This document shows, one piece after another, positions 20,277 to 47,790 of a DNA stretch of 54,939 nt. The notes under the pieces are model-generated. The model had not been told where the DNA came from. It saw nothing but the letters and a program-made list of their open reading frames with translations, and searched no databases. A program made the position numbers and the translations under genes. Source of the stretch: Bacteroidota bacterium (GTDB taxonomy: Bacteria > Bacteroidota > Bacteroidia > Bacteroidales > VadinHA17); contig JADFUQ010000311.1 in NCBI GenBank assembly GCA_015222065.1, positions 1 through 54,939 of the forward strand, given 5' to 3'. Position 1 is the first letter of the stretch; each line of letters starts with the position of its first letter.

Positions 20277-20280
20277 CGAA

Positions 20281-20932: not shown

Positions 20933-21142
20933 AAGCACCAAATAACAACTGATCCGCTGGCGGAGACCTCATGAACACCTTTGAAAATTAATTATTTTGT
21001 GAATAAATAAATTTCAAATGTCAAAGTTCAAAAAAAGAAAATAGAAAGAAGAAAAACAATATATTGGTAAATTCTATTTTGATTTTTTTTTTTTTGTTAA
21101 TTAGAATTTATTTGTTATTTGTTTATTGTTTTTTGGTGCTTT
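20933..21142. repeat. MITE-like structured intergenic element, copy B
   Basis: TIR aagcaccaaataacaa (20933-) / ttgttttttggtgctt (-21142). Core 20968-21010 matches 2161-2203. Contains a T13 run at 21083-21095. Confidence 0.65.
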
Positions 21143-21151
21143 AGTTCAAAA

Positions 21152-21159
21152 TATGTTTG
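21152..21159 (+). promoter_or_regulatory. Bacteroidota-type -7 box (TAnnTTTG)
   Basis: TATGTTTG lies 34 nt upstream of the ATG at 21193, just beyond the right TIR of the MITE-like element. Confidence 0.4.
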
Positions 21160-21192
21160 ATTTTATAGACAGATATTAAATAGTTAAGGAAA

Positions 21193-22950
21193 ATGAAAAG
21201 AGAAATGAAAATTGCGTTTGGATTATTGATTTTAACTGTTTTAATTACAGGATGCTTAAGAAAAGAGTATCCTAGAAAGACAAAGATAGATGAAAAAACA
21301 GTAAAGATTGAGGAAACAGATACAGAATATAAATATTTTTTCGCTGAAGGGATAAAGCAAAAAATGCTTGGAAATATAGGACAAGCAGCAAGATATTTTG
21401 AAAAGGCGATGAAGCTTAATAAAAAAAGCTCAGCTGCTTGTTATGAGTTATCAAGTATTTATACAATAACAGGAAACTATAACGAAGCAATTAAATATGC
21501 CAGAAGAGCAGAAAAACTGGACGAGAAGAATATTTGGTATAAATTACATCTTGCTAATTTATATCATATTACAAAAGAAGTTGATAGTACAATAGTGATA
21601 TATGAAAAAATACAAAATAAATTTCCTGATAGAAATGATTTGGCTTTTAATCTGAGTGAATTATATAAGGAAAAAGGAGAAAAGGAAAAAGCATTAAGAA
21701 TATATGAAAAATTGGAAGAAAGGATTGGGATAAGCAAACATTTGGGACTGGCGAAGGAGGATATTTATGAAAAAGAAGGAAAATTCGAATTGGCGAAAAA
21801 TGAATTGGATAAATTGTTGAGAGTATATGAAAATGATGTGAATATTATGGGTGTACTGGCCGAACTATATCATAATAACGGATATGATGATAAAGCAAAA
21901 GAGACATATGAAAAAATATTTAAGATTGAACCAGACAATTATAATGCAAAAGTTTCATTGTTAGGATATTATAGAAAAAAGAAAGAGTACACAAAAGTTT
22001 TTGAAATTGTAAGAGAAATTATAGAAAATAGTGAGATAAAAGTTAATGAGAAAGTACAAATGATGTTGTCTTTCATATCAAACCCCGTGGAAATAAGAAA
22101 CTATACAGCAAATATTGAAATATTTGTTAGAAAACTTGAAGATCAATACCCGGATGACCATAAAGTAAAAGCGATAGCAGCAGATTTGTGTATAAGGACA
22201 GGTAAATTGGAGGAAGCGAGAAATAAGCTAAAGTATATAATAGAAAAGGGTAAAGGGAATTTTGTTTTATGGGAGCAGTTTCTATTAATTGAAAATAGCA
22301 TGAGAAATTATTCAGAGCTTTATAAGGGAAGTGAGAGAGCAATTAAAATTTACCCGGAAAGTCCAATATTTTATTTATTAAAAGGAATTTCGGCTAGTGA
22401 GTTAAAGAAATATGAAGTATCAATTAAAGCACTGGAAGAAGGATTGAAATTCGTGAAAAACGACAATCAATTGAAAATACAGTTTTATTCAATAATAGGT
22501 GATAGTTACAAAAGTATGGGTTTGCAAAAGAAATCAGATGAAGCAATGGAAATGGCTCTGGAAATTGATTCTGAAAACACAATTGTATTGAATAATTATG
22601 CGTACTATTTATCAGAGAGGGGATGCCGGTTGAGAAAAGCCCTTAAAATGAGTGGTAAGTGTATAATAATTGAACCAAAAAATGCCACATATTTAGATAC
22701 ATATGGATGGATACTTTATAAAATGGGTAAAATAAATGAGGCAAAAGCATATTTGGAAAAAGCAATGAATAATGCAGGTGTAAATGATCCGGAAATAACA
22801 GAACATTATGGAGATATACTATATGAGATGAAAGAATATGTTAGAGCTGTTGAAACCTGGGAAGATGCAATTCTTTTGGGTGGAGAAAAGAAAAAAATTG
22901 AAAAGAAAATTAATGAAGCGAAACAGGAAAACAGCGAAAAGAAAAAGTAA
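21193..22950 (+). CDS. tetratricopeptide-repeat lipoprotein
   Basis: 585 aa. Lipoprotein signal (LLILTVLITGC) followed by multiple TPR-like repeats. Confidence 0.8.
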   Translation: MKREMKIAFGLLILTVLITGCLRKEYPRKTKIDEKTVKIEETDTEYKYFFAEGIKQKMLGNIGQAARYFEKAMKLNKKSSAACYELSSIYTITGNYNEAIKYARRAEKLDEKNIWYKLHLANLYHITKEVDSTIVIYEKIQNKFPDRNDLAFNLSELYKEKGEKEKALRIYEKLEERIGISKHLGLAKEDIYEKEGKFELAKNELDKLLRVYENDVNIMGVLAELYHNNGYDDKAKETYEKIFKIEPDNYNAKVSLLGYYRKKKEYTKVFEIVREIIENSEIKVNEKVQMMLSFISNPVEIRNYTANIEIFVRKLEDQYPDDHKVKAIAADLCIRTGKLEEARNKLKYIIEKGKGNFVLWEQFLLIENSMRNYSELYKGSERAIKIYPESPIFYLLKGISASELKKYEVSIKALEEGLKFVKNDNQLKIQFYSIIGDSYKSMGLQKKSDEAMEMALEIDSENTIVLNNYAYYLSERGCRLRKALKMSGKCIIIEPKNATYLDTYGWILYKMGKINEAKAYLEKAMNNAGVNDPEITEHYGDILYEMKEYVRAVETWEDAILLGGEKKKIEKKINEAKQENSEKKK

Positions 22951-22962
22951 CTAATCAGTACT

Positions 22963-23070
22963 TAAAGTGAAATAAAGGTGCGTAGGTGAGTAATGAGGAG
23001 GAGAAGAAGAGATGAGAGGTGAGTAAAGAAGTAAGAAGAAGAGGGAAGAATGAAGAGTTCAGAGCTCAAA
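22963..23070. repeat. C-poor word array
   Basis: taaagtgaaataaaggtgcgtaggtgagtaatgaggaggagaagaagagatgagaggtgagtaaagaagtaagaagaagagggaagaatgaagag... Confidence 0.8.
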
Positions 23071-23081
23071 GATATTAATTA

Positions 23082-23114
23082 GTAACCCGTAACCCGTAAC
23101 ACGAAACCCGTAAC
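23082..23114. repeat. CGTAACC heptamer array
   Basis: gtaacccgtaacccgtaacacgaaacccgtaac. Confidence 0.85.
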
Positions 23115-23191
23115 TTTTTGAAAGAATGTAAAATGTAGAATATAAAACAAGAGCAATTACCTCAACGGGGTACAGGTAAGCATAGTTAGAG

Positions 23192-23239
23192 CGCCGGAAC
23201 TAGCGTTTTTTACTAGTACCAGTAACGTTGAATCCGGCG
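23192..23239. other. GC-rich hairpin island in an AT-rich spacer
   Basis: CGCCGGA (23192-23198) pairs with TCCGGCG (23233-23239). Inner CGTT/AACG pair, and a loop carrying the ACTAGT palindrome. Confidence 0.5.
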
Positions 23240-23307
23240 TAAGAAACAGAGACTGAAAAAGTATGAAGCAAAAGCGGTGAGAGGCGAGTAGGTAAGTACG
23301 GTAAATA

Positions 23308-23387
23308 GTTTAGAATTTTAGCATTTTAGCAGTCTTGGCATTTTAAGCATTTTAGGCAATTTAAACTTTAAGCACTTTAGGCATTTC
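23308..23387. repeat. GCATTTTAG / GCACTTTAG word array
   Basis: tttagaattttagcattttagcagtcttggcattttaagcattttaggcaatttaaactttaagcactttaggcatttc. The same words occur at 10471-10496, 45700-45790 and (rc) 16511-16545. Confidence 0.8.
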
Positions 23388-28452: not shown

Positions 28453-28493
28453 AGAAGTAAGAAGTATGTAGAAAGTAGTATGTAGTAAGAAGA
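28449..28493. repeat. C-poor word array
   Basis: gtgaagaagtaagaagtatgtagaaagtagtatgtagtaagaaga. Overlaps the mnmG stop codon. Confidence 0.8.
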
Positions 28494-28507
28494 GTTCCAC
28501 GTGGAAC
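28494..28507. promoter_or_regulatory. perfect 14-bp palindrome GTTCCACGTGGAAC (candidate operator, site 1)
   Basis: Exact palindrome. Its twin lies at 28575-28590. Confidence 0.45.
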
Positions 28508-28574
28508 AATGGGAAGAAAAAAGCTGAAAGTTATAAAGTTGAAAGTAAAAATACTTTATTACTAAAATCAATAT

Positions 28575-28590
28575 TGTTCCACGTGGAACA
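28575..28590. promoter_or_regulatory. perfect 16-bp palindrome TGTTCCACGTGGAACA (candidate operator, site 2)
   Basis: Exact palindrome ending 14 nt before the ade ATG. Centres of the two sites are 82 bp apart. Confidence 0.45.
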
Positions 28591-28603
28591 TTATTTATAA
28601 AGA

Positions 28604-30241
28604 ATGAAAGAAAAAAAATATTTATTATTTGGGAAATTAGTTGACCCGGTAAACAGAACGATAATGAATGCAGGTGTTTCTGTTGAAGATGGGAAGATCG
28701 CGAAAATAACGCCTGCTGAAAAGAAAAGCGGAAAATTTATTCTACCTGGTTTTGTTGATTCTCATGTGCATATTGAAAGCTCAATGCTTACTCCGGGAGA
28801 GTTTGCCCGACTGGCAGTCAGACATGGAACAGTAGCAACTGTGTCGGATCCACACGAAATTGCAAATGTATGCGGGAAAGAGGGGTTGCGATTTATGATT
28901 GAGGATGGGAAAAAAGTTCCGTTGAAATTTCATTTTGGGGTGCCGTCATGTGTACCGGCTACTGGTTTTGAAACAGCAGGTGCAACTCTGAATGCTAAAA
29001 TTGTTGAAGAGCTGTTAAAAAGCGATGATTACCTTTTCCTGTCAGAAATGATGAACTACCCGGGGGTAATATATAATGATACAGAGGTTTGGGAAAAGAT
29101 AAGATCTGCAATTAAATTAAATAAACCCATTGATGGACATGCGCCGGGAGTTACAGGTGAAAATCTGAAGAAATATGCCGGTGCAAAAATCTCTACTGAT
29201 CATGAATCTGCAACTATTGATGAGGCTATTGAAAAAATAAATAATGGTATTAAAACACAAATAAGGGAAGGAAGTGCAGCAAAAAACTTTAATGCTCTTT
29301 ATCCTTTGATTATAAAGTATCCTGAAAAGGTTATGTTGTGTACTGATGATTACCATCCTGACGATCTGGTAAACGGACATATTAACCTGCTTATTAAACG
29401 AGGTCTTGAGAAAGGGATTGACCTGTTTAACCTGTTAACAGTTGCTTGTGTAAACCCGGTTAAACATTACAATCTGCATGTAGGATTACTGCAGACCGGC
29501 GATCCTGCTGACTTTATTATTATTGATGATCTGGAGAATTTTAATGTCCTGGAGACTTATATTAACGGGGAGAAAGTATATGATAACGGGAAAACTTTAT
29601 TTGAATACAAAGCAGGCAAGCCGGTTAATAATTTCAAAAGGGAAAGAATATCGGAAAACGACCTGCTGGTAAAAGATAAAGGAAAAAATATAAGGGTTAT
29701 AAAATGTTTTGACGGACAGTTATTTACAAGCTCAATAGTTGTAAAAACGAATACCAGGAATGAACATGTAATTCCTGATGTTAAGAATGATATTTTGAAA
29801 CTGGTTGTTATAAACCGGTACAATAATTCTGAGCCTGCAATTGGATTTATTCATGGCATTGGATTTAAAGATGGTGCAGTGGCTCAAAGTATTGCTCATG
29901 ATAGTCATAATATTATTGCTGCAGGAACAAATGATGAAGATTTGCTAAAAGCTATTAATACAGTTATTTCTTTAAAAGGAGGTATTGCCATTAGTGAAAA
30001 AGGGAATATTCATCAATTACGCCTGGAAATAGCGGGCTTAATGTCCTCGGGAAGCGGAGAAAAAACAGCCTCCGCGTATGCTGAACTTAACGAATTAGCA
30101 AAATCTCTGGGGTCTTCATTTAAATCGCCCTTAATGACACTCTCGTTTATGGCTCTTCTGGTAATTCCTGAACTAAAACTGGGTGATAAAGGACTTTTTG
30201 ATATCAACGCTTTTTCTCAGGTATCATTGTTTGTGGATTAG
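28604..30241 (+). CDS. ade: adenine deaminase
   Basis: 545 aa. Amidohydrolase metal motif PGFVDSHVHIESSML, and Ade-type length and C-terminal domain. Confidence 0.9.
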   Translation: MKEKKYLLFGKLVDPVNRTIMNAGVSVEDGKIAKITPAEKKSGKFILPGFVDSHVHIESSMLTPGEFARLAVRHGTVATVSDPHEIANVCGKEGLRFMIEDGKKVPLKFHFGVPSCVPATGFETAGATLNAKIVEELLKSDDYLFLSEMMNYPGVIYNDTEVWEKIRSAIKLNKPIDGHAPGVTGENLKKYAGAKISTDHESATIDEAIEKINNGIKTQIREGSAAKNFNALYPLIIKYPEKVMLCTDDYHPDDLVNGHINLLIKRGLEKGIDLFNLLTVACVNPVKHYNLHVGLLQTGDPADFIIIDDLENFNVLETYINGEKVYDNGKTLFEYKAGKPVNNFKRERISENDLLVKDKGKNIRVIKCFDGQLFTSSIVVKTNTRNEHVIPDVKNDILKLVVINRYNNSEPAIGFIHGIGFKDGAVAQSIAHDSHNIIAAGTNDEDLLKAINTVISLKGGIAISEKGNIHQLRLEIAGLMSSGSGEKTASAYAELNELAKSLGSSFKSPLMTLSFMALLVIPELKLGDKGLFDINAFSQVSLFVD

Positions 30242-30360
30242 AAGAGCAAAAGAGCAGGGAGCAAAGAGCAAATAAGTTGGAAAAATAAAGAAAGAATGGG
30301 TTGTTAAGAAAAAAGTTCAAAGTTCAAGGTTAAGTCCGACAATAGACAAAATAGTAAAAT

Positions 30361-30455
30361 GCCACTAAGACACAAAAACACAAAGACTCACAAAGAAAGA
30401 ACAATCAATATTTTATACTTAGTGAGTTCTTTGAGTATTCGAGCCTTTGTGGCTA
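30361..30455. repeat. imperfect ~95-bp palindrome
   Basis: gccactaag..cacaaagactcacaaag ... cttagtgagttctttgag..cctttgtggc. Flanked by GTTCAAA words (30314-30334, 30473-30500). Confidence 0.55.
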
Positions 30456-30523
30456 GAAAGACTTCTCAGACTGAGTTCAAAGTTCAACCTTGAACCTTAA
30501 ATTATAAACTCTTTAACTCTTTA

Positions 30524-30550
30524 CACTGCATCACTGCATCACTGCATCAC
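30524..30550. repeat. CACTGCAT octamer x3 tandem array
   Basis: cactgcatcactgcatcactgcatcac. Related cactgcaacactgcatcac at 35751-35771. Confidence 0.85.
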
Positions 30551-30590
30551 TTCTTCTCTCTTATAACATAAAAATTACTACATTTCGGAA

Positions 30591-32426
30591 ATGGACAAAC
30601 CTGCACATATACCCGATCATATTAAATCTCTGCTGTCAGTGATGCCTGGCAAGCCTGGTGTATATCAGTATTTTGATAATAATGGTAATTTGATTTATGT
30701 AGGGAAGGCTAAAAATCTAAAAAAGCGAGTCTCTTCATATTTTACGGGGAAAAACTATGGTAAAACGAAAATTCTGGTCAGTAAAATTGCTGAGATAAAA
30801 CATATTGTTGTTGATTGTGAATCTGATGCACTATTGCTTGAAAACAACCTGATAAAAAAACACCGGCCCAGGTATAATATAATGCTCAAAGACGATAAAA
30901 CTTTCCCATGGATATGTATTAAAAATGAGCCTTTTCCAAGGGTTTTTTCTACAAGGAATATTATTTATGACGGATCGAATTATTTCGGTCCATATACCAC
31001 GGGAGGAATGGTGAAAACATTGCTTGAACTATTAAAAAAATTATATCCGCTCAGAACATGTTCATATAAACTCAATACGGAAAACATTAATAAAGGAAAA
31101 ATAAAAGTTTGTCTTGAATATCACCTTGGAAATTGCAAAGGTCCCTGCGAAGGTCTGCAGAGTGAAGAAGATTATGAAAAATTGATTAAACAAGTGAAAA
31201 ATATTCTGAAGGGAAATATTCAGGAAGTTATTGGATACTTGAAGAAGCTAATGGACGAATATGCAGCCGGATTAAAATATGAGGAAGCGGCTGTTATCAA
31301 AGAAAAAATAAAAACACTTGAAAAATACAGAAGCCGTTCAACCATTGTTAGTTTACGCATCAAAGATGTGGATGTTTTTTCAATAATTGATGACAAAAAG
31401 CGTGCATATGTTAATTATTTAAAGGTGATAAAAGGAGCAGTAGTTCAGTCACATACGGTAGAAATAAGAAAAAAACTTGATGAGACAAAAGAAGAAATAT
31501 TACCGATTGTTTTTATTGAAATAAGAAAGCGGTTTTCGAGTAAAGCAAAAGAAATAATTCTGCCATTTATGCCGGAGATTGAACTTAAAGAGGCAAATGT
31601 TACTGTTCCTCAAAGAGGTGATAAGAAGAAATTGCTGGATCTTTCAAAAAGAAATGCATGGTATTATCGCGGTGAGATTAAAAAACTTTTGGAAGGAAGT
31701 AAAAAATCAGTACGCCTGGAAAAGAAACTGGAGCAAATACAAAAAGACTTGAGAATAAAAAAATTGCCAACACGTATAGAGTGTTTTGATAATTCAAATA
31801 TTCAGGGAACAAATCCTGTTGCAGCTTGTGTAGTATTTAAAAACGGGAGACCTTTAAAACGGGAATACAGGCATTATAATATTAAGACAGTGCAGGGGGC
31901 AAATGATTATGCTTCAATGGGCGAGGTGGTATATCGAAGGTACAATAGATTATTAAACGAAAAGAAATCCCTGCCTCAGCTTGTGATAATTGATGGAGGG
32001 AAAGGTCAGTTAAACGCGGCAGTTGAAAGTCTTGACAAACTCAATATTCGTAATAAGCTAACAATAATTGGAATTGCAAAACGACTGGAGGAGATTTATT
32101 TTCCATTTGATCCGGTTCCTCTCTATCTTGACAAAAATTCTTATTCGTTGAAAATTATTCAGAATCTGAGAAATGAAGCACACAGGTTCGGAATCTCATT
32201 TCACCGGCAAAAACGATCAAGTAAATTTTTAGGATCAGAAATTGATCAGATAAAAGGAATTGGTCAGGAGACTATAAAAAAACTTTTCAAAAAATTTAAA
32301 AGTGTTGACGGAATAAAAAAAGCTGATAGTGAAGAACTGAAAAAACTTATTGGTAAGGCAAAAACTAAGATTTTACTGGAATATTTCAAAAATAGTCCTG
32401 GAACAGAAAAAAATGAAACAAAATAG
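30591..32426 (+). CDS. uvrC: excinuclease ABC subunit C
   Basis: 611 aa. GIY-YIG N-terminus (GVYQYFDNNGNLIYVGKAKNLKKRV), UVR domain, and C-terminal endonuclease/HhH region. Confidence 0.95.
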   Translation: MDKPAHIPDHIKSLLSVMPGKPGVYQYFDNNGNLIYVGKAKNLKKRVSSYFTGKNYGKTKILVSKIAEIKHIVVDCESDALLLENNLIKKHRPRYNIMLKDDKTFPWICIKNEPFPRVFSTRNIIYDGSNYFGPYTTGGMVKTLLELLKKLYPLRTCSYKLNTENINKGKIKVCLEYHLGNCKGPCEGLQSEEDYEKLIKQVKNILKGNIQEVIGYLKKLMDEYAAGLKYEEAAVIKEKIKTLEKYRSRSTIVSLRIKDVDVFSIIDDKKRAYVNYLKVIKGAVVQSHTVEIRKKLDETKEEILPIVFIEIRKRFSSKAKEIILPFMPEIELKEANVTVPQRGDKKKLLDLSKRNAWYYRGEIKKLLEGSKKSVRLEKKLEQIQKDLRIKKLPTRIECFDNSNIQGTNPVAACVVFKNGRPLKREYRHYNIKTVQGANDYASMGEVVYRRYNRLLNEKKSLPQLVIIDGGKGQLNAAVESLDKLNIRNKLTIIGIAKRLEEIYFPFDPVPLYLDKNSYSLKIIQNLRNEAHRFGISFHRQKRSSKFLGSEIDQIKGIGQETIKKLFKKFKSVDGIKKADSEELKKLIGKAKTKILLEYFKNSPGTEKNETK

Positions 32427-32473: not shown

Positions 32474-32535
32474 GTGTTTTTAAACTCATTTCCTTGTAAT
32501 ATTTTTTTATTCTTTTATAATACCCTGTGTAAATG

Positions 32536-32676
32536 TTAAGGAGGAAAGGAAGTGAAGAAGTCTAAGGGTCAAAAGTCGAAAAGGTCAAAGAGGGGGAAAT
32601 GAAGAAATGAGTAAATGGGGAAATGAGGTGAGAAGAAGTGGGAAGAAGTAAGAAGGAAGAAGAAGAGAATAATGAA
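32536..32676. repeat. C-poor word array
   Basis: 32586-32676 (91 nt) has no C. Includes ggtcaaaagtcgaaaaggtcaaag, the reverse complement of words at 16636-16668. Confidence 0.85.
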
Positions 32677-34379: not shown

Positions 34380-34497
34380 ATTTTGCGAACGAAGTGAAGC
34401 AATCTTTCATGACTTTTCGTAAAGTCCATGTTGATTTGTTATTTAGCATTCCGGTTGTTCTTGGGAGATTGCTTCGTCGCTACGCTCCTCGCAAAAT
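34380..34497. repeat. 118-bp hairpin / MITE-like element
   Basis: Left arm attttgcgaacgaagtgaagcaatct (34380-34405). Right arm agattgcttcgtcgctacgctcctcgcaaaat (34466-34497). Shares AGATTGCTTC and TCGCAAAAT pairs. The 12-mer aattttgcgaac also occurs at 10384-10395. Confidence 0.65.
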
Positions 34498-34527
34498 CTT
34501 TTTCCAACCAATAAAATCCGGTTAAAG

Positions 34528-34665
34528 CTTCTCCTCTTCGCCCCTGTTTCCTTTTCGACTCTTTGACTTTCTTTCTTCACCTCATTTTCTCATCTCTTCA
34601 TCTCCTCATTACTTCATCACCTCATTACCTCATCACCTCATTCACTCATTCACTCATCCTTCAAC
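34528..34665. repeat. G-poor word array (CTCATC/CACCTCATT/CACTCATT words)
   Basis: 34566-34665 (100 nt) contains no G. Confidence 0.85.
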
Positions 34666-35092: not shown

Positions 35093-35563
35093 ATGACTAT
35101 AGTACGTGTTACAAAAGAATTCCATTTTGAAATGGCCCATGCTTTATGGAATTATGACGGACCATGCAGAAATATCCACGGGCATTCATACAAATTACTG
35201 GTAACCGTAAAGGGCGAACCGTTAAATGATCCGGGCAAACCCAAACATGGAATGATAATTGACTTTGGCGACCTGAAACAAATAGTAAAAACCACAATTA
35301 TAAACAGGTTTGATCATACAGTTGTTGTTAATAAACAAGCACCATATGAAATGCTAAAGAAAATGGGGCAAATGTTTGAAAAATATGAGGTAATGGATTT
35401 CCAGCCAACCTGTGAGAAACTTGTTATATATTTCGCCGAAATTATTAAAGAAAAATTACCCGAAAACACACAGCTTCAGCGACTTAGATTGTATGAAACG
35501 ACAACATCATTTGCAGAATGGTATGAGGAGGATAATGCAAGTAAAGATAAAAGTCAAAAGTAA
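35093..35563 (+). CDS. queD: 6-carboxytetrahydropterin synthase (6-pyruvoyl-tetrahydropterin synthase family)
   Basis: 156 aa. FEMAHAL, CRNIHGHSY. The last ~8 codons (SKDKSQK) are encoded by the AAAGATAAAAG word array. Confidence 0.85.
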   Translation: MTIVRVTKEFHFEMAHALWNYDGPCRNIHGHSYKLLVTVKGEPLNDPGKPKHGMIIDFGDLKQIVKTTIINRFDHTVVVNKQAPYEMLKKMGQMFEKYEVMDFQPTCEKLVIYFAEIIKEKLPENTQLQRLRLYETTTSFAEWYEEDNASKDKSQK

Positions 35564-35645
35564 AAAGATAAAAGTAAAAAGATAAAAGGGAAGAAGTAAG
35601 AAGAGGTGGGTGGGTAGTAAGAAGTAGGTAGTAAGTAGAAGAAAA
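35539..35645. repeat. C-poor word array (AAAGATAAAAG then GTAAGAAG words)
   Basis: aagtaaagataaaagtcaaaagtaaaaagataaaagtaaaaagataaaagggaagaagtaagaagaggtgggtgggtagtaagaagtaggtagtaagtagaag. The same AAAGATAAAAG words occur at 54881-54939. Confidence 0.85.
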
Positions 35646-35702
35646 GGCAAAAGCTTGCCACGTGAAATGCGACTTAGGAGCATATTTCACTGTGGGCAAA
35701 AG
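35646..35702. repeat. REP-like GTGAAAT/ATTTCAC hairpin element (short form, inverted relative to 15901-15998)
   Basis: ggcaaaagcttgccacgtgaaatgcgacttaggagcatatttcactgtgggcaaaag. Confidence 0.75.
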
Positions 35703-35775
35703 TGAAGAATGAAGAGTTCAAAGACCTTAACTCGTAACCCGTAACACTTATTCACTGCAACACTGCATCACAATT
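35703..35775. repeat. composite word module GAAGAATGAAGAGTTCAAAG - CTCGTAACCCGTAAC - CACTGCA(T/A)CAC
   Basis: The same word order occurs at 20221-20312 and 23031-23114, and partly at 30465-30550. Confidence 0.75.
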
Positions 35776-35794
35776 CTTATTAAGACAAAAGACA

Positions 35795-38593
35795 ATGGCT
35801 GGCAATAAAAAAACGGGAAACAATAAAAAACTATTCTTACTTGATGCTTATGCATTGATATTCAGAGCATATTATGCATTTATTCATAATCCTGTAAAAA
35901 CCTCCAAAGGATTAAATACTTCTGCAATTTATGGATTTATTAACACTTTAAATGATATAATTAAAAACCAGACTCCATCACATATTGCCGTGGTTTTTGA
36001 TCCTCCTTCTCCTACCTTCAGACACAAAATGTATAAAGAATACAAAGCCAACAGGGAAGCGACACCTGAAGATATTAAGAAATCGGTTCCGTATATAAAA
36101 AAAGTAATTTCAGCTTACAATATACCTATTCTGGAAGTGGAAGGATATGAAGCAGATGATACTATCGGAACTATTGCAAAAAAGGCAGAAAGTAAGGGTT
36201 TTAAGGTTTATATGATGACTTCGGATAAGGATTTTGCACAGCTTGTTTCTGATAATATATTTATTTATAAACCGGGAAGTGGTGGAGCACAAGCAGTTAT
36301 TTGGGATAAGGAAAAAGTCAGAGAGAAATTTATGGTAGAACGCCCGGAACAGGTAATTGAAGTGCTTGCTCTGTGGGGTGATGCCTCAGATAACATACCC
36401 GGAGCCCCTGGGATAGGTGAAAAAACATCAAAAAAGCTGATATCAAAATATGGCGGAATAGATGAAATATTCAAGAATATTGAACAATTTAAAGGAAAGC
36501 AAAAAGAAAACCTGATTGAATATCGTGAACAGATTGAATTATCGAAGAAACTGGTTGAAATTCCGTTGGATGTTCCTGTTGATTTCGATGAAGAAGCAAT
36601 GAAATCTAAAGATCCGGACAAGGAAAAACTCCAGGAAATATTTCAGGAACTGGAATTCAAAAGTTTCCTTTTCCGGTTGAATAAGGGGATTGAAATACCG
36701 ACAAAAAAAACAGAAATAGCGGCACAGGGATCATTGTTTTCCAGCCATAATATAGGCAAAATGGAAACAGATAATTCAGGGAAAAACATTAAGTCAACCC
36801 CGCATAATTATGTTTTGGTTGATACACCCGAAAAACAAGAAGCGCTTATAAGCAAACTAAATAAGCAAAACCGGTTTTGTTTTGATACCGAAACAACAGG
36901 ATTGGATACTATCAAAGATGAACTGATTGGTATTTCTTTTTGTTGTGAAAGTCATGAAGCATATTGGCTCCCCGTTGAAAGCGATAAAAAGATATCTGAA
37001 AAAGTACTTGAGAAATTCAAACCGGTATTTGAAAATGAAAAGATTGAAAAAATAGGTCAAAATCTGAAATTTGATATAAAGGTTTTACGGAAAAGGGGAA
37101 TAGTTGTAAAAGGTGCTTTATTTGATACAATGGTTGCCCATTATCTTATTAAACCTGAAGGTAAACACGGTCTGAACGACTTGGCAGAGGACTATCTGAA
37201 TTATACTCCTGTTAAAATTGAAGAATTGATAGGAGTAAAAGGGAAAAGTCAGGCAAATATGCGATCAGTACCACAAGAAAAGATTAAAGAATATGCTGCA
37301 GAAGATGCAGATCTGACGTGGCAGATAAAAAAGATTCTTGAAAAGGAACTTAAAGAGAAACACCTTGAAACACTTGCGGAAAAAATTGAAATGCCACTTG
37401 TATATGTATTATGTGACATGGAAATGAGAGGATTTAAGGTAAATGTTAATGTGTTAAAAAAATACTCGGAAATATTAAAAGTTGAATTGCTGGATATTCA
37501 GACCGGGATCTATAAACTTGCTGATACGGAATTTAATATTTCCTCACCGAAACAACTGGGCGAAATATTGTTTACAAAACTGAAAATTGATTCTAAAGCA
37601 AAAAAGACAAAAACCGGACAATATTCTACAAGTGAGGATGTGCTGCAAAGGCTTGTAAACAAACATGAAATTGTATCTAAAGTATTAGAATTCAGATCTG
37701 TTAGCAAATTGCTTTCCACTTATGTTGAAAAACTTCCGGAGTTAAAAAATAGCGAAACCGGAAAAATTCATTCTTCTTTTAATCAAACAATTACAGCTAC
37801 AGGTCGTCTGAGCTCCAATAACCCGAATTTACAGAATATCCCGATAAGGGAAGACAGAGGCAGGGAGATAAGGAAGGCCTTTGTTCCTTCAGATATACAA
37901 CACATTCTGATTTCGGCTGATTATTCACAGATAGAGTTAAGGATAATGGCCCATATGAGTGGCGACAAAAATTTGATTGATGCTTTTAATACAGGTGAGG
38001 ATATTCATGTTTCTACAGCTGCAAAAATACATAGAATTTCACCAGGGGATGTTACAAAAGAAATGCGTGAGAGAGCAAAAACTGCTAATTTTGGTATCAT
38101 ATATGGTATTTCTGCTTTTGGGTTAAGCCGGAGGATGAATTTGCCCCTGTCTGATGCTAAAGAATTTATTGAGGAGTATTTTAGAACTTACCCGGGGGTT
38201 AAGAAATATATGGATAAGAGCATAGAAAGAGCAAGGGAAAAGGGATATGTGCAAACCATTATGGGTAGAAAAAGATATCTGCCTGATATTCTTTCACGTA
38301 ATTCTGTTGTAAGGGGATTTGCAGAGAGAAATGCAATAAATGCCCCAATTCAGGGATATGCAGCTGATATTATTAAAATAGCAATGATTAATATTCACAA
38401 CAAGATAAAGGAAAAAAAATTGAAATCAGGAATGATATTGCAGGTTCATGACGAACTGGTTTTTGATGTACCGGAAAAAGAAGTTGATGTACTTAGTGAT
38501 ATTGTGGTTAGTGAAATGCAGAATGCTGTTAAGCTGGATGTGCCTCTTACGGTTGATTGTGGTACAGGAAGAAACTGGCTTGAAGCACACTAA
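35795..38593 (+). CDS. polA: DNA polymerase I
   Basis: 932 aa. 5' nuclease domain, 3'-5' exonuclease-like domain (FDTETTGL), and pol motifs DYSQIELRI, RRxAKxxNFGxxYG, QVHDEL. Confidence 0.97.
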   Translation: MAGNKKTGNNKKLFLLDAYALIFRAYYAFIHNPVKTSKGLNTSAIYGFINTLNDIIKNQTPSHIAVVFDPPSPTFRHKMYKEYKANREATPEDIKKSVPYIKKVISAYNIPILEVEGYEADDTIGTIAKKAESKGFKVYMMTSDKDFAQLVSDNIFIYKPGSGGAQAVIWDKEKVREKFMVERPEQVIEVLALWGDASDNIPGAPGIGEKTSKKLISKYGGIDEIFKNIEQFKGKQKENLIEYREQIELSKKLVEIPLDVPVDFDEEAMKSKDPDKEKLQEIFQELEFKSFLFRLNKGIEIPTKKTEIAAQGSLFSSHNIGKMETDNSGKNIKSTPHNYVLVDTPEKQEALISKLNKQNRFCFDTETTGLDTIKDELIGISFCCESHEAYWLPVESDKKISEKVLEKFKPVFENEKIEKIGQNLKFDIKVLRKRGIVVKGALFDTMVAHYLIKPEGKHGLNDLAEDYLNYTPVKIEELIGVKGKSQANMRSVPQEKIKEYAAEDADLTWQIKKILEKELKEKHLETLAEKIEMPLVYVLCDMEMRGFKVNVNVLKKYSEILKVELLDIQTGIYKLADTEFNISSPKQLGEILFTKLKIDSKAKKTKTGQYSTSEDVLQRLVNKHEIVSKVLEFRSVSKLLSTYVEKLPELKNSETGKIHSSFNQTITATGRLSSNNPNLQNIPIREDRGREIRKAFVPSDIQHILISADYSQIELRIMAHMSGDKNLIDAFNTGEDIHVSTAAKIHRISPGDVTKEMRERAKTANFGIIYGISAFGLSRRMNLPLSDAKEFIEEYFRTYPGVKKYMDKSIERAREKGYVQTIMGRKRYLPDILSRNSVVRGFAERNAINAPIQGYAADIIKIAMINIHNKIKEKKLKSGMILQVHDELVFDVPEKEVDVLSDIVVSEMQNAVKLDVPLTVDCGTGRNWLEAH

Positions 38594-38622
38594 GGAAGAG
38601 GTGAAAAGAAAGCAAAAGGCTC

Positions 38623-38656
38623 GAAAAAATATGAAATCAAAGATTTCTGTTTTTTT
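38623..38656. terminator. bidirectional intrinsic terminator
   Basis: AAAAAATAT-GAAATC-aaa-GATTTC-TGTTTTTTT, between convergent polA and the S41 peptidase gene. Confidence 0.55.
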
Positions 38657-38667
38657 GGGACTTAATT

Positions 38668-40344
38668 CTATTGATCAGATGAATTGAGAATGGCAGTATA
38701 TGTGTGTTTGTCTTCAAATAGATCACATGCTTTTTCTATTTGTTTATCATAAGGTAGTGAAGACTGGATCATACCGGAACGATAATAATAACGGTCAACA
38801 ATAGATTCTTCAAGAAGGATTTTAATCTCCTTACTAAAGGCATTCATGTCTTGTTCAAGATCACGGGAAAGTTTTTTTGAAAGTGCTGTGAATTCGTTTT
38901 CAGAAAACTGGTAATATTTTTCCTTTTTTGCAGTTTCTTTCAATGTACGAAATGCCTGATCTGTTTTAGTTTCATAATTAAAGTTTTGTTCTTTAACAAA
39001 TGCGATAAAATCAAGATAAATACCATCAGTAATCTCAAAATCACCAGGGGGAAGTAACGAGTCATGTGCCAGATAATATCGGGTTGAAAAGTCGAAAAAC
39101 ATAAAATCGGTAAAAAGTTCAATAGTAAGCTGGCTGGGATTATCCTCTATAATTTCAATATCAGGAGAAATACCACCGCCGTCATAAACCAATCGGCCAT
39201 TTTTGGTTTTATATTCTGAAATTAAAGAATCAGGTATATGACCAACGCTTCCATCCTCATTACGGTTGGAATAATCCAATGCCTGGATACAGCGCCCGCT
39301 GGGAATATAATACTTTGCTGTTGTTACCTTAAGTCGTGAATTATAGCTTAAAGGACGGGTAGTTTGAACAAGACCCTTTCCAAATGTACGGGTGCCGATA
39401 ATTACAGCCCTGTCAATATCCTGAAGAGCACCTGCAACGATTTCTGATGCTGATGCGGACCCACGGTTTACAAGAACAACAAGAGGTGTTTGAGTATCAA
39501 CGGGAAGATTCTTTGCCCTGTATGTTTCATCGAATTGTTTTACCTTGCCCCTGGTACTGACTATTTCCTGCCCTTTGTTAACAAAAAGATTTGACACGTT
39601 AACTGCCTCTATAAGTAAACCGCCCGGATTTCCTCGTAAATCTAGAATTAATGATTTTAGGGAATATGTTTTTTTAAGATCAGTAAGAGCGTTTTTAACA
39701 TCTTTAGAGCAGTCCTGTGTGAAGTTTGAAAGACGGATATAGCCAATATTTTCATTCAGCATACCATAATAAGGAACACCGGTGATATGGATTTTTTTGC
39801 GGATAAGAGTAACTGTAAAGGGTTTATCGATTCCATATCGTTTAATGGTTACTCCAACTTCGGTGTCAGGCAGACCTTTTAACAGGTCACTTACTTTGTG
39901 AAGAGCCAATCCATCAATAGATTTATTATCTATCTCGCGGATAATATCTCCGGCTTTCAGTCCTGCTAAATCTGCCGGGAAATCTTTATATACCTCAGAA
40001 ATAACAGCAAAATCACCACTTTTTCTGATTAACGAACCAATACCTCCGTATTTACCTGTTGTGGCAAAATTAAAATCATCAATACCTGATTCGGGAATAT
40101 AAACAGTGTAAGGATCAAGTGATTGAAGCATTTCATTAATACTTATTTCAATCAGTTTTTCCGGTTCAATGTCATCGACATAAAAGACATTAAGCTCCCG
40201 GAAGAGGGAATAATAAATATCAAGATTTTTTAAAAGTTTAAAATCCCTGTCTTCATTAAATGAAACAAGACCTACAGTAAACGTAATGATAATAAGTATA
40301 ATAATACCTGCTTTTTTAAATATTCCAATCCCTGTTAGTTTCAT
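38668..40344 (-). CDS. ctp: S41 family carboxy-terminal processing peptidase
   Basis: PDZ region, GSASASEI and TFGKG motifs. ATG at 40344 (MKLTGIGIFKKAGIIILIIITF signal anchor) is preferred. The ORF is open to an ATG at 40419. Confidence 0.85.
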   Translation of the reverse strand: MKLTGIGIFKKAGIIILIIITFTVGLVSFNEDRDFKLLKNLDIYYSLFRELNVFYVDDIEPEKLIEISINEMLQSLDPYTVYIPESGIDDFNFATTGKYGGIGSLIRKSGDFAVISEVYKDFPADLAGLKAGDIIREIDNKSIDGLALHKVSDLLKGLPDTEVGVTIKRYGIDKPFTVTLIRKKIHITGVPYYGMLNENIGYIRLSNFTQDCSKDVKNALTDLKKTYSLKSLILDLRGNPGGLLIEAVNVSNLFVNKGQEIVSTRGKVKQFDETYRAKNLPVDTQTPLVVLVNRGSASASEIVAGALQDIDRAVIIGTRTFGKGLVQTTRPLSYNSRLKVTTAKYYIPSGRCIQALDYSNRNEDGSVGHIPDSLISEYKTKNGRLVYDGGGISPDIEIIEDNPSQLTIELFTDFMFFDFSTRYYLAHDSLLPPGDFEITDGIYLDFIAFVKEQNFNYETKTDQAFRTLKETAKKEKYYQFSENEFTALSKKLSRDLEQDMNAFSKEIKILLEESIVDRYYYRSGMIQSSLPYDKQIEKACDLFEDKHTYTAILNSSDQ

Positions 40345-40423
40345 ATGTTTATTATTTAGCAATATTTTTATTTTCAATAGTAAGTATTTTTGGAATACTG
40401 GAATGCTCGATAAAGTCATCTAT

Positions 40424-40467
40424 TTCTTCCCATTTTTCCACTATTCCATTATTCCATTATTCCAATT
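40424..40467. repeat. G-poor ATTCC/CCATT word array
   Basis: ttcttcccatttttccactattccattattccattattccaatt. Confidence 0.8.
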
Positions 40468-40572
40468 AATACTTAATCATTCTCCTGTGGATCAAAATTT
40501 TTATCATGGATGTTTCATCTGTTTGAAATTTGTTTTATATCTGTTTATTTCAAAACGGAGCAAAGATAGAAA

Positions 40573-46503: not shown

Positions 46504-47559
46504 ATGAGCAACGAAAAATTTAGTTTACAGAAATTTATTGAGGATTCAAAAAGCGCTATTTTGAATCCCAAAGAGCATTTTACTACACTAAGTACTACTG
46601 GTGGCTTTGGCGAACCGGTAATTAAAGCAGTTATTTATGGGTTTATCGCCGGTGTTTTTGCTTTATTATGGAGTTTACTTAATATATCTGGCGGATTAGG
46701 GTTTGGGGGTTTATTTGGCGGAGCTGTTGGCATAATGGCTTTTATAGGTTCAATTATAGGTGCCCTTATTGGTCTGTTTTTAGGAGGAGTTATTGTTTTA
46801 ATTATTTCTGCTATTTGTAATGGATCAAATGATTATGAAGCAAATGTAAGAGTAGTAGCTGCGATGATGGTTCTTGCACCTATTAATGCTTTTTTGAATG
46901 TCTTTAATGGTATAAGTCCGGCACTTGGGGGTATAATTGGACTGATAGTAAACCTTTATGGGTTATGGATGCTATACCATGCACTTAACCAAACACTGAA
47001 GGCAAAAGAGGAAACGTCAAAAATAATTGCATTAGTTTTAGGGGCTTTAGTTTTGTTATTTGCAATTATTGGCTTTGGTACCCGAAAGAAATTGAATAAT
47101 TTGGGAAAAAGGTTTGGAGATTATGAAAATATCTCAAAAGAATATGAAAAAGCAGCAAAAAAAATGGCAGAAAACTATGAGGAAATAGCAAAAGAAATAG
47201 TAGAAAAAACTGAAGAAATGACAGATGAAATAACAGAAGCGTATGGAGATACTGAAGTGGATTATAAATTTGAAATGGCAAACGGGGAAACGGTGAAAAA
47301 AATTAATTCTATTTCAGTAACCATGGCATTGAAAAGCCTTGATGAAGACAATAACTTTGCAATACTCAGTAAAGGAGATTCATTTGTGCAAACTGCTATA
47401 GGAGAAGAGGGCTACATTGTTGAATACAGAGATGATTCGGGTTATTTCAGGAGTGTAGAAACGAATATAACTTATGAAAAGGCTGTAATTATGTTCATTG
47501 GATTTCTCAATGAAGATGATTCATGGAAAGAAATAACAGAATGGGAAACGGCGGAATGA
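46504..47559 (+). CDS. Yip1-domain membrane protein with extra acidic linker and C-terminal soluble domain
   Basis: 351 aa. The N-terminal ~195 aa form a 5-TM Yip1/DUF1282-like region. They are followed by an acidic helical linker and a ~100-aa globular tail (FVQTAIGEEGYIVEYRDDSGYF...). Confidence 0.65.
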   Translation: MSNEKFSLQKFIEDSKSAILNPKEHFTTLSTTGGFGEPVIKAVIYGFIAGVFALLWSLLNISGGLGFGGLFGGAVGIMAFIGSIIGALIGLFLGGVIVLIISAICNGSNDYEANVRVVAAMMVLAPINAFLNVFNGISPALGGIIGLIVNLYGLWMLYHALNQTLKAKEETSKIIALVLGALVLLFAIIGFGTRKKLNNLGKRFGDYENISKEYEKAAKKMAENYEEIAKEIVEKTEEMTDEITEAYGDTEVDYKFEMANGETVKKINSISVTMALKSLDEDNNFAILSKGDSFVQTAIGEEGYIVEYRDDSGYFRSVETNITYEKAVIMFIGFLNEDDSWKEITEWETAE

Positions 47560-47626
47560 TGGAATAGTGGAATGATGGAAGAATGGAAGAATGGGAAGAG
47601 TGAAGAATGTGATGCAGAATGGAGAA
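47539..47626. repeat. C-poor GGAAT word array
   Basis: gaatgggaaacggcggaatgatggaatagtggaatgatggaagaatggaagaatgggaagagtgaagaatgtgatgcagaatggag. Overlaps the last codons and the stop of the Yip1 gene. Confidence 0.85.
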
Positions 47627-47710
47627 CAAAGGATTCCATGAAACCATAGTTAACTTATGACTTTTAACATATAACGTATAACTCTTTGGAACAATGGGTA
47701 ATGGGATGCT

Positions 47711-47745
47711 GGATTCTCCAGTATTCCATAATTCCAGTATTCCAA
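47711..47745. repeat. G-poor ATTCC word array (complementary arm)
   Basis: ggattctccagtattccataattccagtattccaa. Confidence 0.75.
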
Positions 47746-47790
47746 AATAACTAAGTATTATCCTAAAAAACCATACTAATTATAGTCCGG

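Follow-up and report, generated by a model that had tools for sequence, protein, structure and literature searches.

The window analysed here is the whole 54.9-kb stretch (54,939 nt) of contig JADFUQ010000311.1 from a Bacteroidota bacterium (assembly GCA_015222065.1), and our subject is the DNA between its genes, above all the spacer between queD and polA and the sequence words that it has in common with other spacers. The window has a G+C content of 33%. The 30 products scanned against Pfam, out of 44 genes called, are those of ordinary chromosomal housekeeping genes, and the genes named include lgt, rpiB, nadA, ruvB, pheS, dut, mnmG, ybeY, uvrC, queD (PTPS family), polA, yidD and others; rnpA was assigned solely by reading its translation by eye. 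A search of the window for tRNA and tmRNA genes found none. A PolA search led to six relatives, loci L001–L006, whose PolA is 80–92% identical (the next match is at 62%) and in which gene order is fully syntenic with the window; a contig index queried for an exact copy of this PolA gave no match. All six are uncultured Bacteroidota/Bacteroidales metagenome-assembled genomes (MAGs), and their isolate names suggest an origin in cold seeps or vents; the public sequencing runs that contain window sequence are cold-seep and marine-sediment metagenomes. Counts of shared words and of arrays refer to 41 spacers, or 7.9 kb of non-coding DNA, set against 47 kb of coding DNA. Four focal spacers, A (20151–20330), B (22975–23135), C (35564–35794) and D (30242–30590), were compared by Smith–Waterman alignment within these limits. 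Their parts are listed below, with copy numbers and scores from Tandem Repeats Finder (TRF).

35564–35651, + strand: purine tract of spacer C, directly 3′ of the queD stop codon; about three copies of GATAAAAGTAAAAA, then AAGAAGT/GTAGTAA-type units, G-rich strand +; A46 C1 G29 T12, TRF rows 35543–35638
35652–35702 (also delimited as 35644–35703), no strand assigned: short form of a REP-like hairpin element, ttgccacgtgaaatgcgac...gcatatttcactgtgggcaa, between the arrays of spacer C
35703–35728, + strand: linker of spacer C, GAAGAATGAAGAGTTCAAAGACCTTA (the GAGTTCAAAG module); exact 17-mer in common with 23045–23061
35729–35747, − strand: heptamer array of spacer C, AACTCGTAACCCGTAACAC, GTAACCC (CGYAAC-type), C-rich on +; exact 17-mer in common with 20279–20295 and 15-mer with 23088
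35753–35771, − strand: octamer array of spacer C, CACTGCAA/CACTGCAT, 2.4 copies; 1.4 copies at the orthologous place in L001 and L002
35772–35794, + strand: leader to the polA start codon, conserved in the window, L001, L002 and L003; in L005 and L006 the polA-proximal sequence is different, ...aaataaattcttaca
20151–20276, + strand: purine tract of spacer A, 3′ of a flippase-like gene; AGAGGTG, AAGAAGT and AGAGGGAAGA units; A55 C2 G56 T13
20279–20312, − strand: CGYAAC array of spacer A, aactcgtaacccgtaacccgatactcgcaacac, upstream of dut
22975–23075, + strand: purine tract and GAGTTCA/GAGCTCA linker of spacer B; 22975–23060 is A37 C2 G35 T12
23082–23114, − strand: GTAACCC array of spacer B, 4.7 copies, TRF score 52
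23115–23140, no strand assigned: post-array block of spacer B, TTTTGAAAGAATGTAAAATGTAGAA; also in a non-orthologous spacer of locus L108
23262–23386, no strand assigned: second short purine tract of spacer B, gcggtgagaggcgagtaggtaagtacgg, then an array of about nine copies of TTTAGCAT (TRF 23309–23386); collinear with L108
30242–30335, + strand: purine tract of spacer D, 3′ of the adenine deaminase gene; AAGAGCA and AAAGTTC units; A47 C6 G25 T16
30470–30551, − strand: modules of spacer D, GAGTTCAAAGTTCAACCTTGAACCTTAA, AACTCTTT x2, CACTGCAT x3.5, upstream of uvrC

The modules of the spacers are degenerate tandem arrays of 7–8 nt units, among them AAGAAGT, AGAGGTG, GAGGTGA, GGAATGAT, GATAAAAGTAAAAA, GTAACCC, CACTGCAT, TCACCTCA, CTTACTCAA and TTTAGCAT; dozens of distinct units occur. 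TRF returned 114 rows in the window, 79 of them non-coding; among these, periods 7, 8 and 9 account for 24, 17 and 8 rows, and a further 10 have a period of 14 or 16. Rows of period 7–8 number 41 in the non-coding DNA and 5 in the coding DNA, and a separate run on the concatenated spacers gave 39 such rows against 1.4 (maximum 4) after shuffling. Given this excess, the words quoted in an earlier, sequence-only reading of the window are array units or short linkers between arrays. Arrays of period 7–8 cover 13.8% of the non-coding DNA in the window, 14–27% in L001–L003, 7% in L006, 1.4% in L005 and about 0–2% in the majority of the 74 further loci from Bacteroidota. The vocabulary is peculiar to the clade: AAGAAGTAAGAAG has seven occurrences in the window, seven in L001–L006 and none in 1.42 Mb of other Bacteroidota loci. 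The G-rich strand of the arrays consists of 41% A, 28% G, 27% T and 4% C. Units such as AAGAAGT, AGGTGATG and AATAATGG contain no G-runs, strings of the type ggtgggtggg are isolated, and G-quadruplexes are not expected because the units are built of A, G and T without such runs; the signature of quadruplex-forming heptamers, at least four G3+ tracts per array with a preference for four units, is absent from these arrays. So is that of CRISPR, namely repeats of 23–47 nt separated by unique spacers of similar length, since the units here are 7–8 nt long and stand head-to-tail with nothing between them. A coding or recoded reading of the tracts was rejected. On the G-rich strand the unit contains a stop trinucleotide in 68 of 98 arrays and, as a period of 7–8 is not a multiple of three, repetition of such a unit puts stops in every frame; between orthologues the tracts vary by indels whose lengths are not divisible by three, or one tract is missing.

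How much do these spacers have in common? The sequence-only reading had proposed that spacers A, B and C carry the same modules in the same order, and direct look-up bore out the positions of its words with one exception. GAAGAATGAAGAGTTCA matches exactly at 23045 and 35704, AACTCGTAACCCGTAAC at 20279 and 35729, and GTAACCCGTAAC lies at 20284, 23082, 23089 and 35734. The fourth spacer brought into the comparison (30465–30550) does contain GAGTTCAAAG at 30473, as at 35714, and CACTGCATCAC at 30524, 30532 and 30540, as at 35761. GTAACTAATCAGT is present at 806 and 22947 and as its reverse complement at 9297, and the copy at 22947 supplies the TAA stop codon of the TPR gene at 21193..22950. GCAGTCCACAGTC lies at 16575 and 20865, and at 835 the copy is limited to GCAGTCC. 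The exception is a 24-mer at 32567, which has no exact reverse complement within 16636–16668 and has only the unit GGTCAAAAG in common with that region. The amount of sharing is far above expectation: the spacers have 105 14-mers in common, in 25 spacer pairs, and 64 16-mers, in 11 pairs, against 3.8–5.2 (maximum 13) and 0.35–0.49 after dinucleotide shuffling that was either global or local within 30-nt blocks, so that local composition was retained. Smith–Waterman scores of 77 (A–B), 46 (A–C), 48 (B–C) and 42 (C–D) are each higher than any obtained from 300 local shuffles or from 300 permutations of 8-nt blocks, the second null leaving the repeat units intact.

The homology is patchy, and different pairs share different patches of 15–55 nt. 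Spacers A and B have in common a non-periodic stretch of 46 nt with three mismatches (AGGAGGAGAAGAAGAGRTGAGAGGTGAGTRAAGAAGTAAGAAG; 22996–23041 on the side of spacer B) and four further collinear words, the last being GTAACCCGTAACCCG, which makes five collinear words in all. The alignment of spacers B and C extends over 55 columns and three module junctions (GAAGAATGAAGAG / TTCAAAGA / TTAA / GTAACCCGTAAC), one 7-nt unit making the difference between them. The succession of GAGTTCAAAG, a CGYAAC array and CACTGCAWCAC is complete in the polA spacer of the window and in the non-orthologous spacer upstream of uvrC in L002; the uvrC spacer of the window is without the middle CGYAAC array, which its L002 orthologue has between the same two modules. 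A composite of hairpin, purine linker and AACTCGTAACCCGTAAC stands at 35630–35765 and, inverted, at 16012–15815(−), and the L005 orthologue and locus L153 have it too. In L108, the spacer between gltB- and gltD-like genes (names taken from reading the translations) repeats four to five blocks of spacer B in collinear order, with no gene of the window nearby, and metagenome unitigs combine words of different spacers in still other ways. A cassette profile of the kind that the sequence-only reading had envisaged was built with nhmmer, and it recovered its six training copies and one partial copy only. The family is thus a mosaic of patches and not one element. The patches and collinear blocks are truly homologous between non-orthologous spacers, and sequence is therefore copied from spacer to spacer; the similarity itself is plain, and the mechanism would be one of those considered below. 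The earlier proposal of a common cassette in place of low-complexity drift therefore holds in so far as there is real homology between spacers, and fails in that both processes operate and no single cassette exists. The order of words does recur in non-orthologous spacers of other genomes (L002, L108); orthologous spacers differ in length, unit and presence.

The second regularity concerns the strands. The C-poor, purine-rich strand of the arrays is oriented 5′ to 3′ away from the neighbouring gene. Of the 31 arrays close to a stop codon, 27 have their G-rich strand as the sense strand and 4 do not (p=3e-5), the G-rich strand has its 5′ end towards the nearer open reading frame (ORF) in 42 of 57 arrays (42 versus 15, p=5e-4), and 12 of the 15 spacers with both kinds of tract show G-then-C on the + strand (12 versus 3; controls 53 versus 39). 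Other Bacteroidota loci display the same trend (26 versus 14, p=0.08). Because a G-then-C arrangement is its own reverse complement, it is valid for co-directional, convergent and divergent gene pairs alike, as at 35564–35794, 3686–3751, 9176–9299 and, between two minus-strand genes, 53079–53359. It also follows from the rule that purine words precede C-rich words in every co-directional spacer, which accounts for part of the claimed sameness of order. The C-rich parts hold C18/G6 in 66 nt (35729–35794), C28/G6 in 108 nt (30483–30590) and C57/G5 in 182 nt (53178–53359). TAnnTTTG is not enriched in the window (77 occurrences, 85.6 expected); in front of three genes such a box lies between the C-rich tract and the start codon (9397, 16100, 34786), which places the tracts of those genes upstream of promoters. 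Readings centred on translation, with a stop-rich buffer after genes and a start-free leader before them, were rejected, the effects being small: 7.4 stops per 100 nt on the sense strand versus 5.8 on the antisense strand downstream of genes, and 3.4 versus 4.3 starts per 100 nt upstream. They also fail for some tracts because those tracts sit upstream of promoter boxes. The remaining arrays and related features of the window are as follows.

15833–15999, + strand: inverted copy of the spacer C composite; hairpin element 15900–15999, purine linker, gaactcgtaattcgcaacccgtaac at 15833–15875 (nhmmer match 15875–15833(−), E=0.0014)
53079–53359, no strand assigned: spacer between two minus-strand genes; TGGAATAA arrays at 53079–53124 (G-rich on +), then TTCCACTC/ATTCCA arrays at 53178–53359
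47553–47748, no strand assigned: convergent spacer; GGAATGAT arrays at 47553–47614, then ATTCCA arrays at 47717–47748
34566–34665, − strand: TCACCTCA/CTTCATCACCTCATTA arrays, G-free on + over 100 nt; upstream of an arsR-like gene and its TATATTTG box at 34747
32526–32676, + strand: purine arrays of GGTCAAAAG, GGAAATGA and GTGAGAAGAA, between uvrC and a luxR-type small gene
9176–9299, no strand assigned: divergent spacer; G-rich on + in its GTTAATG x4, G-free on + in the arrays of CTTACTCAACTACTC type that follow
40416–40486, − strand: CCATTATT arrays; the flanking genes are on the minus strand, and their sense strand is the purine-rich one; directly adjoins the start codon of an S41 peptidase gene
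3686–3751, no strand assigned: convergent spacer with two facing purine tracts, one per gene
28453–28492, + strand: AAGAAGT/AAGAAGTATGTAGA arrays, directly 3′ of the mnmG stop codon
54874–54939, + strand: GATAAAAGTAAAAA array at the end of the window; 25-mer in common with 35564–35588
22947–22959, + strand: GTAACTAATCAGT, a word at the gene-proximal edge of G-rich tracts; TPR stop codon
806–818; 9297–9309(−); 16042–16054(−, one mismatch); 16560–16572 (two mismatches): further copies of GTAACTAATCAGT

With up to two mismatches allowed, GTAACTAATCAGT has 8 matches in the window against 1.46 expected; the relatives fetched contain no copy of it.

Comparison with the relatives revealed that the promoter-proximal ends of spacers are conserved and the tracts between them are not. 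The queD–polA spacer is 231 nt long in the window and 143, 139, 78, 11, 190 and 179 nt long in L001–L006, respectively. In L001–L003 and L006 its units are of the TCACCTCA/ATTACCTC type in place of GTAACCC, L005 keeps CGYAAC and L004 has no tract; wherever tracts are present, the purine-then-pyrimidine order is retained. The arsR–queD spacer measures 10 nt in the window, and a purine tract brings it to 244 nt in L001 and 147 nt in L002, where the insert is a duplicated segment of ~55 nt. Lengths upstream of uvrC are 349, 384, 391, 44, 116 and 101 nt. The CCATTATT array at 40416–40486 has one 8-nt unit fewer in L002 and no counterpart in L006, and CACTGCAW is present in 3.5 and 2.4 copies in the window versus 1.4 in relatives. 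A variant contig, recovered in two runs, has 22978–23373 replaced by 21 nt of purines. Species whose PolA is 88–92% identical differ in the length, unit and presence of their arrays, and common descent is therefore quickly overwritten. The arrays can reach into genes: QueD of the window has a 7-aa C-terminal extension, ASKDKSQK (35537–35563), where the GATAAAAGTAAAAA array has overrun the ancestral stop codon, and in all six relatives the protein ends in ...EDNK* or ...EDNE*.

When 18 spacers were folded on both strands and compared with dinucleotide shuffles, focal spacers had z-scores of +1.3, +1.3 and −1.5, no better than the shuffles; tracts depleted of one letter, free of C or of G, are hardly able to pair with themselves. 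Three regions do fold better than shuffles, 28453–28603, 53038–53419 and 30242–30590(−), and the spacer at 53079–53359 has z=−3.6 on the + strand and −3.1 on the − strand. A long hairpin formed between purine tract and C-rich tract is supported only at 53038–53419 and, weakly, at 47560–47790; for spacers A, B and C the idea was rejected (z ≥ −1.5). A search of the window against Rfam 15 yielded no match at gathering score. At E≤1 two weak matches appeared, one within the gene at 39361–39480 and one of an archaeal small nucleolar RNA model on the purine tract 38595–38652 at half the gathering score, and both are taken as chance. Over the 20–40 kb scanned, no hairpin resembling an intrinsic terminator was found behind any gene. 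As a separate observation, the convergent gene pair that in the window encloses 231 nt of facing arrays (47560–47790) and no hairpin is divided in L002 (20326–20392) by only 67 nt, which include a textbook hairpin terminator of the bidirectional type, aaaaaacctgaagtttaggcttcaggttttttt.

The one palindromic constituent of the focal spacers is the hairpin element, which resembles the repetitive extragenic palindromes (REPs) of other bacteria; stem-loops of ~35 nt, the palindromic units of REPs and of bacterial interspersed mosaic elements (BIMEs), are otherwise absent from these spacers. In spacer C it is 51 nt long and folds with −16.9 kcal/mol (z=−1.9). This short form, gccacgtgaaatgcgac ... 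ggagcatatttcactgtgggcaaaag, has 27-mers in common with 15900 and 15974 on the other strand, where a long form of ~100 nt (15900–15999) carries inner GTGAAAT/ATTTCAC arms. A partial copy lies at 9137–9149, and further copies in L001, L005 and L153 occupy different spacers in different relatives. Metagenome depth over the element is 45–127x versus ~5x alongside it; it is multi-copy.

Which processes could give rise to spacers of this kind? The explanation that we hold to be probable, if by no means secure, is that they are mosaics of heptamer-type repeats generated by slippage, copied ectopically between spacers and filtered by an orientation constraint linked to transcription; the function that it implies is a proposal. 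The arrays arise and change by tandem duplication, they contain patches common to different spacers, and their orientation is constrained with respect to the genes. They are not structured RNA, do not code for protein and are not individually essential. As the comparison of species shows, arrays grow and shrink through slipped-strand or tandem duplication of single units, of 14–16 nt or of ~55 nt. Related species have gained, lost and replaced them, and the true regulatory ends of the spacer stay. Under the polarity rule a co-directional spacer runs from the stop codon through a purine tract, sometimes a hairpin element, and a C-rich, G-poor tract to the next start codon. Copying might proceed from one low-complexity tract to another by ectopic recombination, gene conversion or template switching, and some patches may ride along with the REP-like hairpin element. 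The polarity is most likely imposed by transcription. An RNA polymerase leaving a gene would make C-free RNA of little structure, and a polymerase approaching a gene from either side would make C-rich, G-poor RNA of little structure, which is the composition that loads Rho; wrongly oriented tracts would be selected against.

Several observations weigh against this explanation. The upstream half of the polarity is weak when taken alone (start-proximal arrays are C-rich in 15 cases and G-rich in 11, p=0.56), the array at 40416–40486 is an exception to it, and no TAnnTTTG box follows the C-rich tract in focal spacers A–D. The contigs of three runs disclosed no polymorphism of unit number inside arrays, so that slippage is deduced from differences between species only. 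None of the public runs searched that carry window sequence is an RNA run, and what is said here of RNA polymerase and Rho is what we infer. The focal spacers possibly lie inside operons, where a Rho-loading tract would be harmful if the downstream genes are co-transcribed. Finally, Rho cannot be the general cause because the same polarity is found in Nostoc and, to our knowledge, cyanobacteria lack Rho.

A bolder extension, which we regard as rather unlikely, makes the arrays a genome-wide punctuation coded by orientation, with the C-rich, G-poor strand pointing into every gene, so that inbound RNA would load Rho and outbound RNA would be C-free. The inbound polymerase would come from read-through of a neighbour or from antisense transcription starting downstream, and, as only composition and orientation would matter, the vocabulary of units would be free to drift by slippage. 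If this is true, the polarity of heptamers in Xanthomonas, Nostoc and other Bacteroidota would be accounted for by the same logic or by an equivalent that does without Rho.

The sharing of blocks might alternatively be traced to discrete non-autonomous mobile elements, such as miniature inverted-repeat transposable elements (MITEs), REPs or BIME-like composites, whose internal order would be the shared order. This is possible, though on balance unlikely. It would account for the composite of hairpin, linker and AACTCGTAACCCGTAAC at three independent places (35630–35765 with its L005 orthologue, 16012–15815(−) and L153), for the blocks common to spacer B and the gltB|gltD spacer of L108, for the recurrence of GTAACTAATCAGT at gene-proximal tract edges and for the metagenome contigs that join words of different spacers. 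Empty and filled sites, as expected of MITEs, do exist (arsR|queD with 10 versus 147 and 244 nt; 22978–23373 reduced to 21 nt), and the arsR|queD insert of L001 and L002 is flanked by agaaRaaRtt ... aaaaaatt, of which the window has agaaaaaatt only. Yet this apparent flanking duplication is itself low-complexity purine sequence and may have been a seed for slippage, no terminal inverted repeats surround the whole cassette, there is no full-length consensus for a profile to find, pairs of spacers share different patches, and neither a transposase nor a REP-associated tyrosine transposase (RAYT) gene is among the 30 window genes scanned. The sharp period of 7–8 nt and the return of the same unit families in different species and at non-orthologous sites could instead mean that the arrays serve as multivalent platforms, bound by a regulator or by a single-strand nucleic-acid-binding protein (cold-shock, S1 or RRM type; footprint ~7 nt), the words then being selected motifs. 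Binding of Csp, S1 or CsrA to TAACTGA arrays has been proposed (MacGregor 2015, PMC4679880), deletion of heptamers alters the expression of recF and recO reporters in Nostoc (bioRxiv 10.1101/2022.06.06.494920), and CGYAAC arrays precede start codons by 7–40 nt in many unrelated metagenome contigs. We nevertheless find the idea doubtful, because dozens of different units are in use, arrays are present or absent between close relatives that retain the gene, the flanking genes have no function in common and no candidate binding protein was identified.

Pure convergence, that is independent low-complexity drift under compositional constraint without any homology of spacers, draws on two facts: polarity alone puts G-rich and C-rich words in order, and in a strongly biased three-letter vocabulary identical short units are expected to arise repeatedly. 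It is improbable in view of alignment scores above every unit-preserving block permutation, of exact 17-mers that span the junctions of different modules, of the 46-nt non-periodic match between A and B and of the multi-block collinearity with L002 and L108. An intergenic position that is often just upstream of a start codon, the 51-nt hairpin inside spacer C and the three regions that fold better than shuffles might recommend a structured non-coding RNA (riboswitch, small RNA or attenuator) or a family of hairpin-type terminators. We judge this very improbable, for focal spacers fold like shuffles, their C-free and G-free tracts hardly pair, Rfam offers nothing beyond the one chance-level spacer match, and orthologues differ by indels of whole arrays and not by compensatory changes. 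That short-read unitigs break inside spacers and join words of different spacers could even raise the suspicion of an assembly or chimera artefact of the metagenome bin, an idea with next to no credibility: the array-bearing architecture is found in six independently assembled MAGs, and Logan contigs from independent runs match 35679–35837 and 29727–30808 with 0 mismatches. As these contigs reproduce it exactly, the spacer sequence is not an assembly artefact.

How do the arrays relate to known systems? Tandem heptamers designated STRR were reportedly described in cyanobacteria by Mazel and co-workers in 1990. Long simple sequence repeats (LSSRs), as summarized from Mrazek 2007 in PMC4679880, have units of 5–11 nt, most commonly 7, and stay out of coding DNA except where the unit length is divisible by three; polymerase slippage was proposed as their origin. 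The arrays of the window agree with LSSRs, to the extent of that summary, in modal unit of 7 nt, head-to-tail arrangement and non-coding excess, and differ from the long clean arrays of the survey in being short, imperfect and concatenated and in making up about one seventh of non-coding DNA. TAACTGA and mixed heptamer arrays have been reported from marine Beggiatoaceae, cyanobacteria and five Bacteroidetes (MacGregor 2015, PMC4679880). They too are intergenic, often near start codons, of fixed orientation and sporadic in phylogenetic distribution; Gramella forsetii, Aequorivita sublithincola and Microcystis mix heptamers within a spacer, and the corresponding spacers of their close relatives are shorter and free of repeats (PMC4679880). 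Unlike in that system, the word TAACTGA is not used here, and the arrays are more degenerate (~70–90% matches) and lie mostly just after stop codons; neither a polarity rule nor homology between spacers is described there (PMC4679880). The closest known system is that of the heptamer simple-sequence repeats GGGNATC and GGGGA(C/T)T in Xanthomonas and Nostoc, for which the same rule of polarity relative to ORFs was reported (Rehm 2015, PMC4692102). Their defining features are found here: tandem and strongly intergenic repeats, spread over the genome beside ordinary metabolic genes, varying in length and sequence between close relatives and associated with no function (PMC4692102). In contrast to them, the window employs dozens of degenerate units and not one, without G-runs and without a preference for four copies. 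Several different arrays are chained within a single spacer, patches are common to different spacers and the host is a member of the Bacteroidales with 33% G+C.

BIMEs and REPs of enterobacteria and the BOX A-Bn-C elements of pneumococci are palindromic or otherwise structured modules of 35–60 nt with a recognizable consensus. Like them, the arrays are extragenic, dispersed and modular, with motifs in fixed order, one module variable in copy number and a frequent position at the 3′ ends of genes or between the genes of an operon, and one module here is a REP-like hairpin; unlike them, they consist of tandem units of 7–8 nt without stable fold or full-length consensus. A Rho-utilization (rut) site is a region of ~60–80 nt or more of C-rich, G-poor and little-structured RNA upstream of the site of release. 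The C-rich strands of 40–180 nt are likewise G-poor and predicted to have little structure, and they face incoming transcription on both sides of genes; the likeness is one of composition alone, since the tracts are repeat arrays that are dispensable between relatives, and the same polarity recurs in cyanobacteria, which we believe to be devoid of Rho. Rho is present in Bacteroidota (PMC11347177), and its general task is to suppress antisense and read-through transcription (PMC12360218). What is new in the window is the lineage, the density of the arrays and a degenerate vocabulary of many units that is C-free on one strand. New also are the chaining of arrays and a REP-like hairpin in recurrent block orders and the statistically supported copying of patches between non-orthologous spacers.

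For decades heptamer repeats have been on record from xanthomonads, cyanobacteria, Beggiatoaceae and a few Bacteroidetes, and no function proposed for them has gained acceptance. The high density, C-free vocabulary and clear polarity of the present arrays therefore make them a clean natural dataset for separating explanations based on a binding protein from compositional ones (transcription and Rho, or purine loading). If polarity serves to insulate transcription units, the arrays would represent a kind of terminator that is independent of sequence and coded by composition. On the practical side, the tracts break short-read assemblies at nearly every spacer, can extend reading frames past stop codons, as in queD, and flag the 3′ ends of small unannotated genes. 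A case in point may be seen at 14694–14864 (+), where a 56-aa hydrophobic ORF that falls below minimum-length filters has a typical purine tract, gcggaggtaagagagtaaaagaatag, immediately 3′ of it.

Arrays of this general type were also met outside the clade. Unrelated Bacteroidia contain cleaner arrays of other units (L070, L040, L054, L050, L055), and those at L070 1728–2371, L054 21330–21413 and L055 12834–12888 are long and near-perfect (TTGGTTGC x14, GATCTGT x9, TTCACTA x12, GAAAAGT x8) and often form inverted pairs within one spacer; given their presence in unrelated MAGs, the array habit arose or persisted in several lineages of Bacteroidota. Among the metagenome loci (L081–L200; for example L088, L089, L104, L109, L147, L159 and L169), NNCGYAAC heptamer arrays occur on unrelated contigs of 34–70% G+C, with units such as ACCCGTA, ACTCGTA, ACCCGCA and ACGCGTA. 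Commonly, a G-rich array is separated by a short A/T-rich centre from a following C-rich one that ends 7–40 nt before a start codon; in L088, L159 and L169 they precede the same small membrane-protein gene (MSNREKIIV...). A crude test of ORF context for these arrays was uninformative in GC-rich contigs, and a literature search on the GTAACCC/NNCGYAAC motif turned up no relevant report.

Some spacers hold additional features. Within spacer B, 23140–23262 is an island richer in G+C with a hairpin, ggcgccggaactagcg...cgttgaatccggcg (fold z=−1.8), which is missing from the variant contig; it could represent a small RNA or what is left of an inserted element. In spacer D, the GAGTTCAAAG module at 30473–30500 contains a palindrome, GTTCAACCTTGAAC, just upstream of uvrC, and in several species the leaders of uvrC and polA both carry CACTGCAACACAATT. 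That one regulator acts on these two repair genes is conceivable; the other genes that bear cassettes are unrelated to polA and uvrC. A perfect palindrome, GTTCCACGTGGAAC, occurs twice upstream of the adenine deaminase gene, at 28494–28507 and 28576–28589, and both copies are conserved in L001, L002 and L005; they are probably an operator pair, and their spacer is the only strongly structured one (z=−6.6 and −9.1). Between the palindromes, the orientation of an AAGTTGAA/AAGTTAAA array in the window is opposite to that in L001/L002, as though the array had undergone inversion there.

Two further regions point to dispersed sequences of other kinds. The spacers upstream of a glycosyltransferase gene (2396) and of the TPR gene (21193), 2160–2300 and 20930–21135, have in common an exact 27-mer, AACACCTTTGAAAATTAATTATTTTGT, and further 12–13-mers in inverted orientation, and metagenome depth reaches 36–93x over 20328–21655; they may harbour another intergenic element of the dispersed kind or regulatory sequence common to both. 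At ~34380–34500, an inverted-repeat element, ttttgcgaacgaagtgaagcaatc ... gattgcttcgtcgctacgctcctcgcaaaa, has a word depth of 500–1700x versus ~5x around it, and its centre (34405–34465) is replaced in variant contigs. In the sampled community this is a dispersed repeat of very high abundance, one frame of which reads ...CEERSDEAIS....

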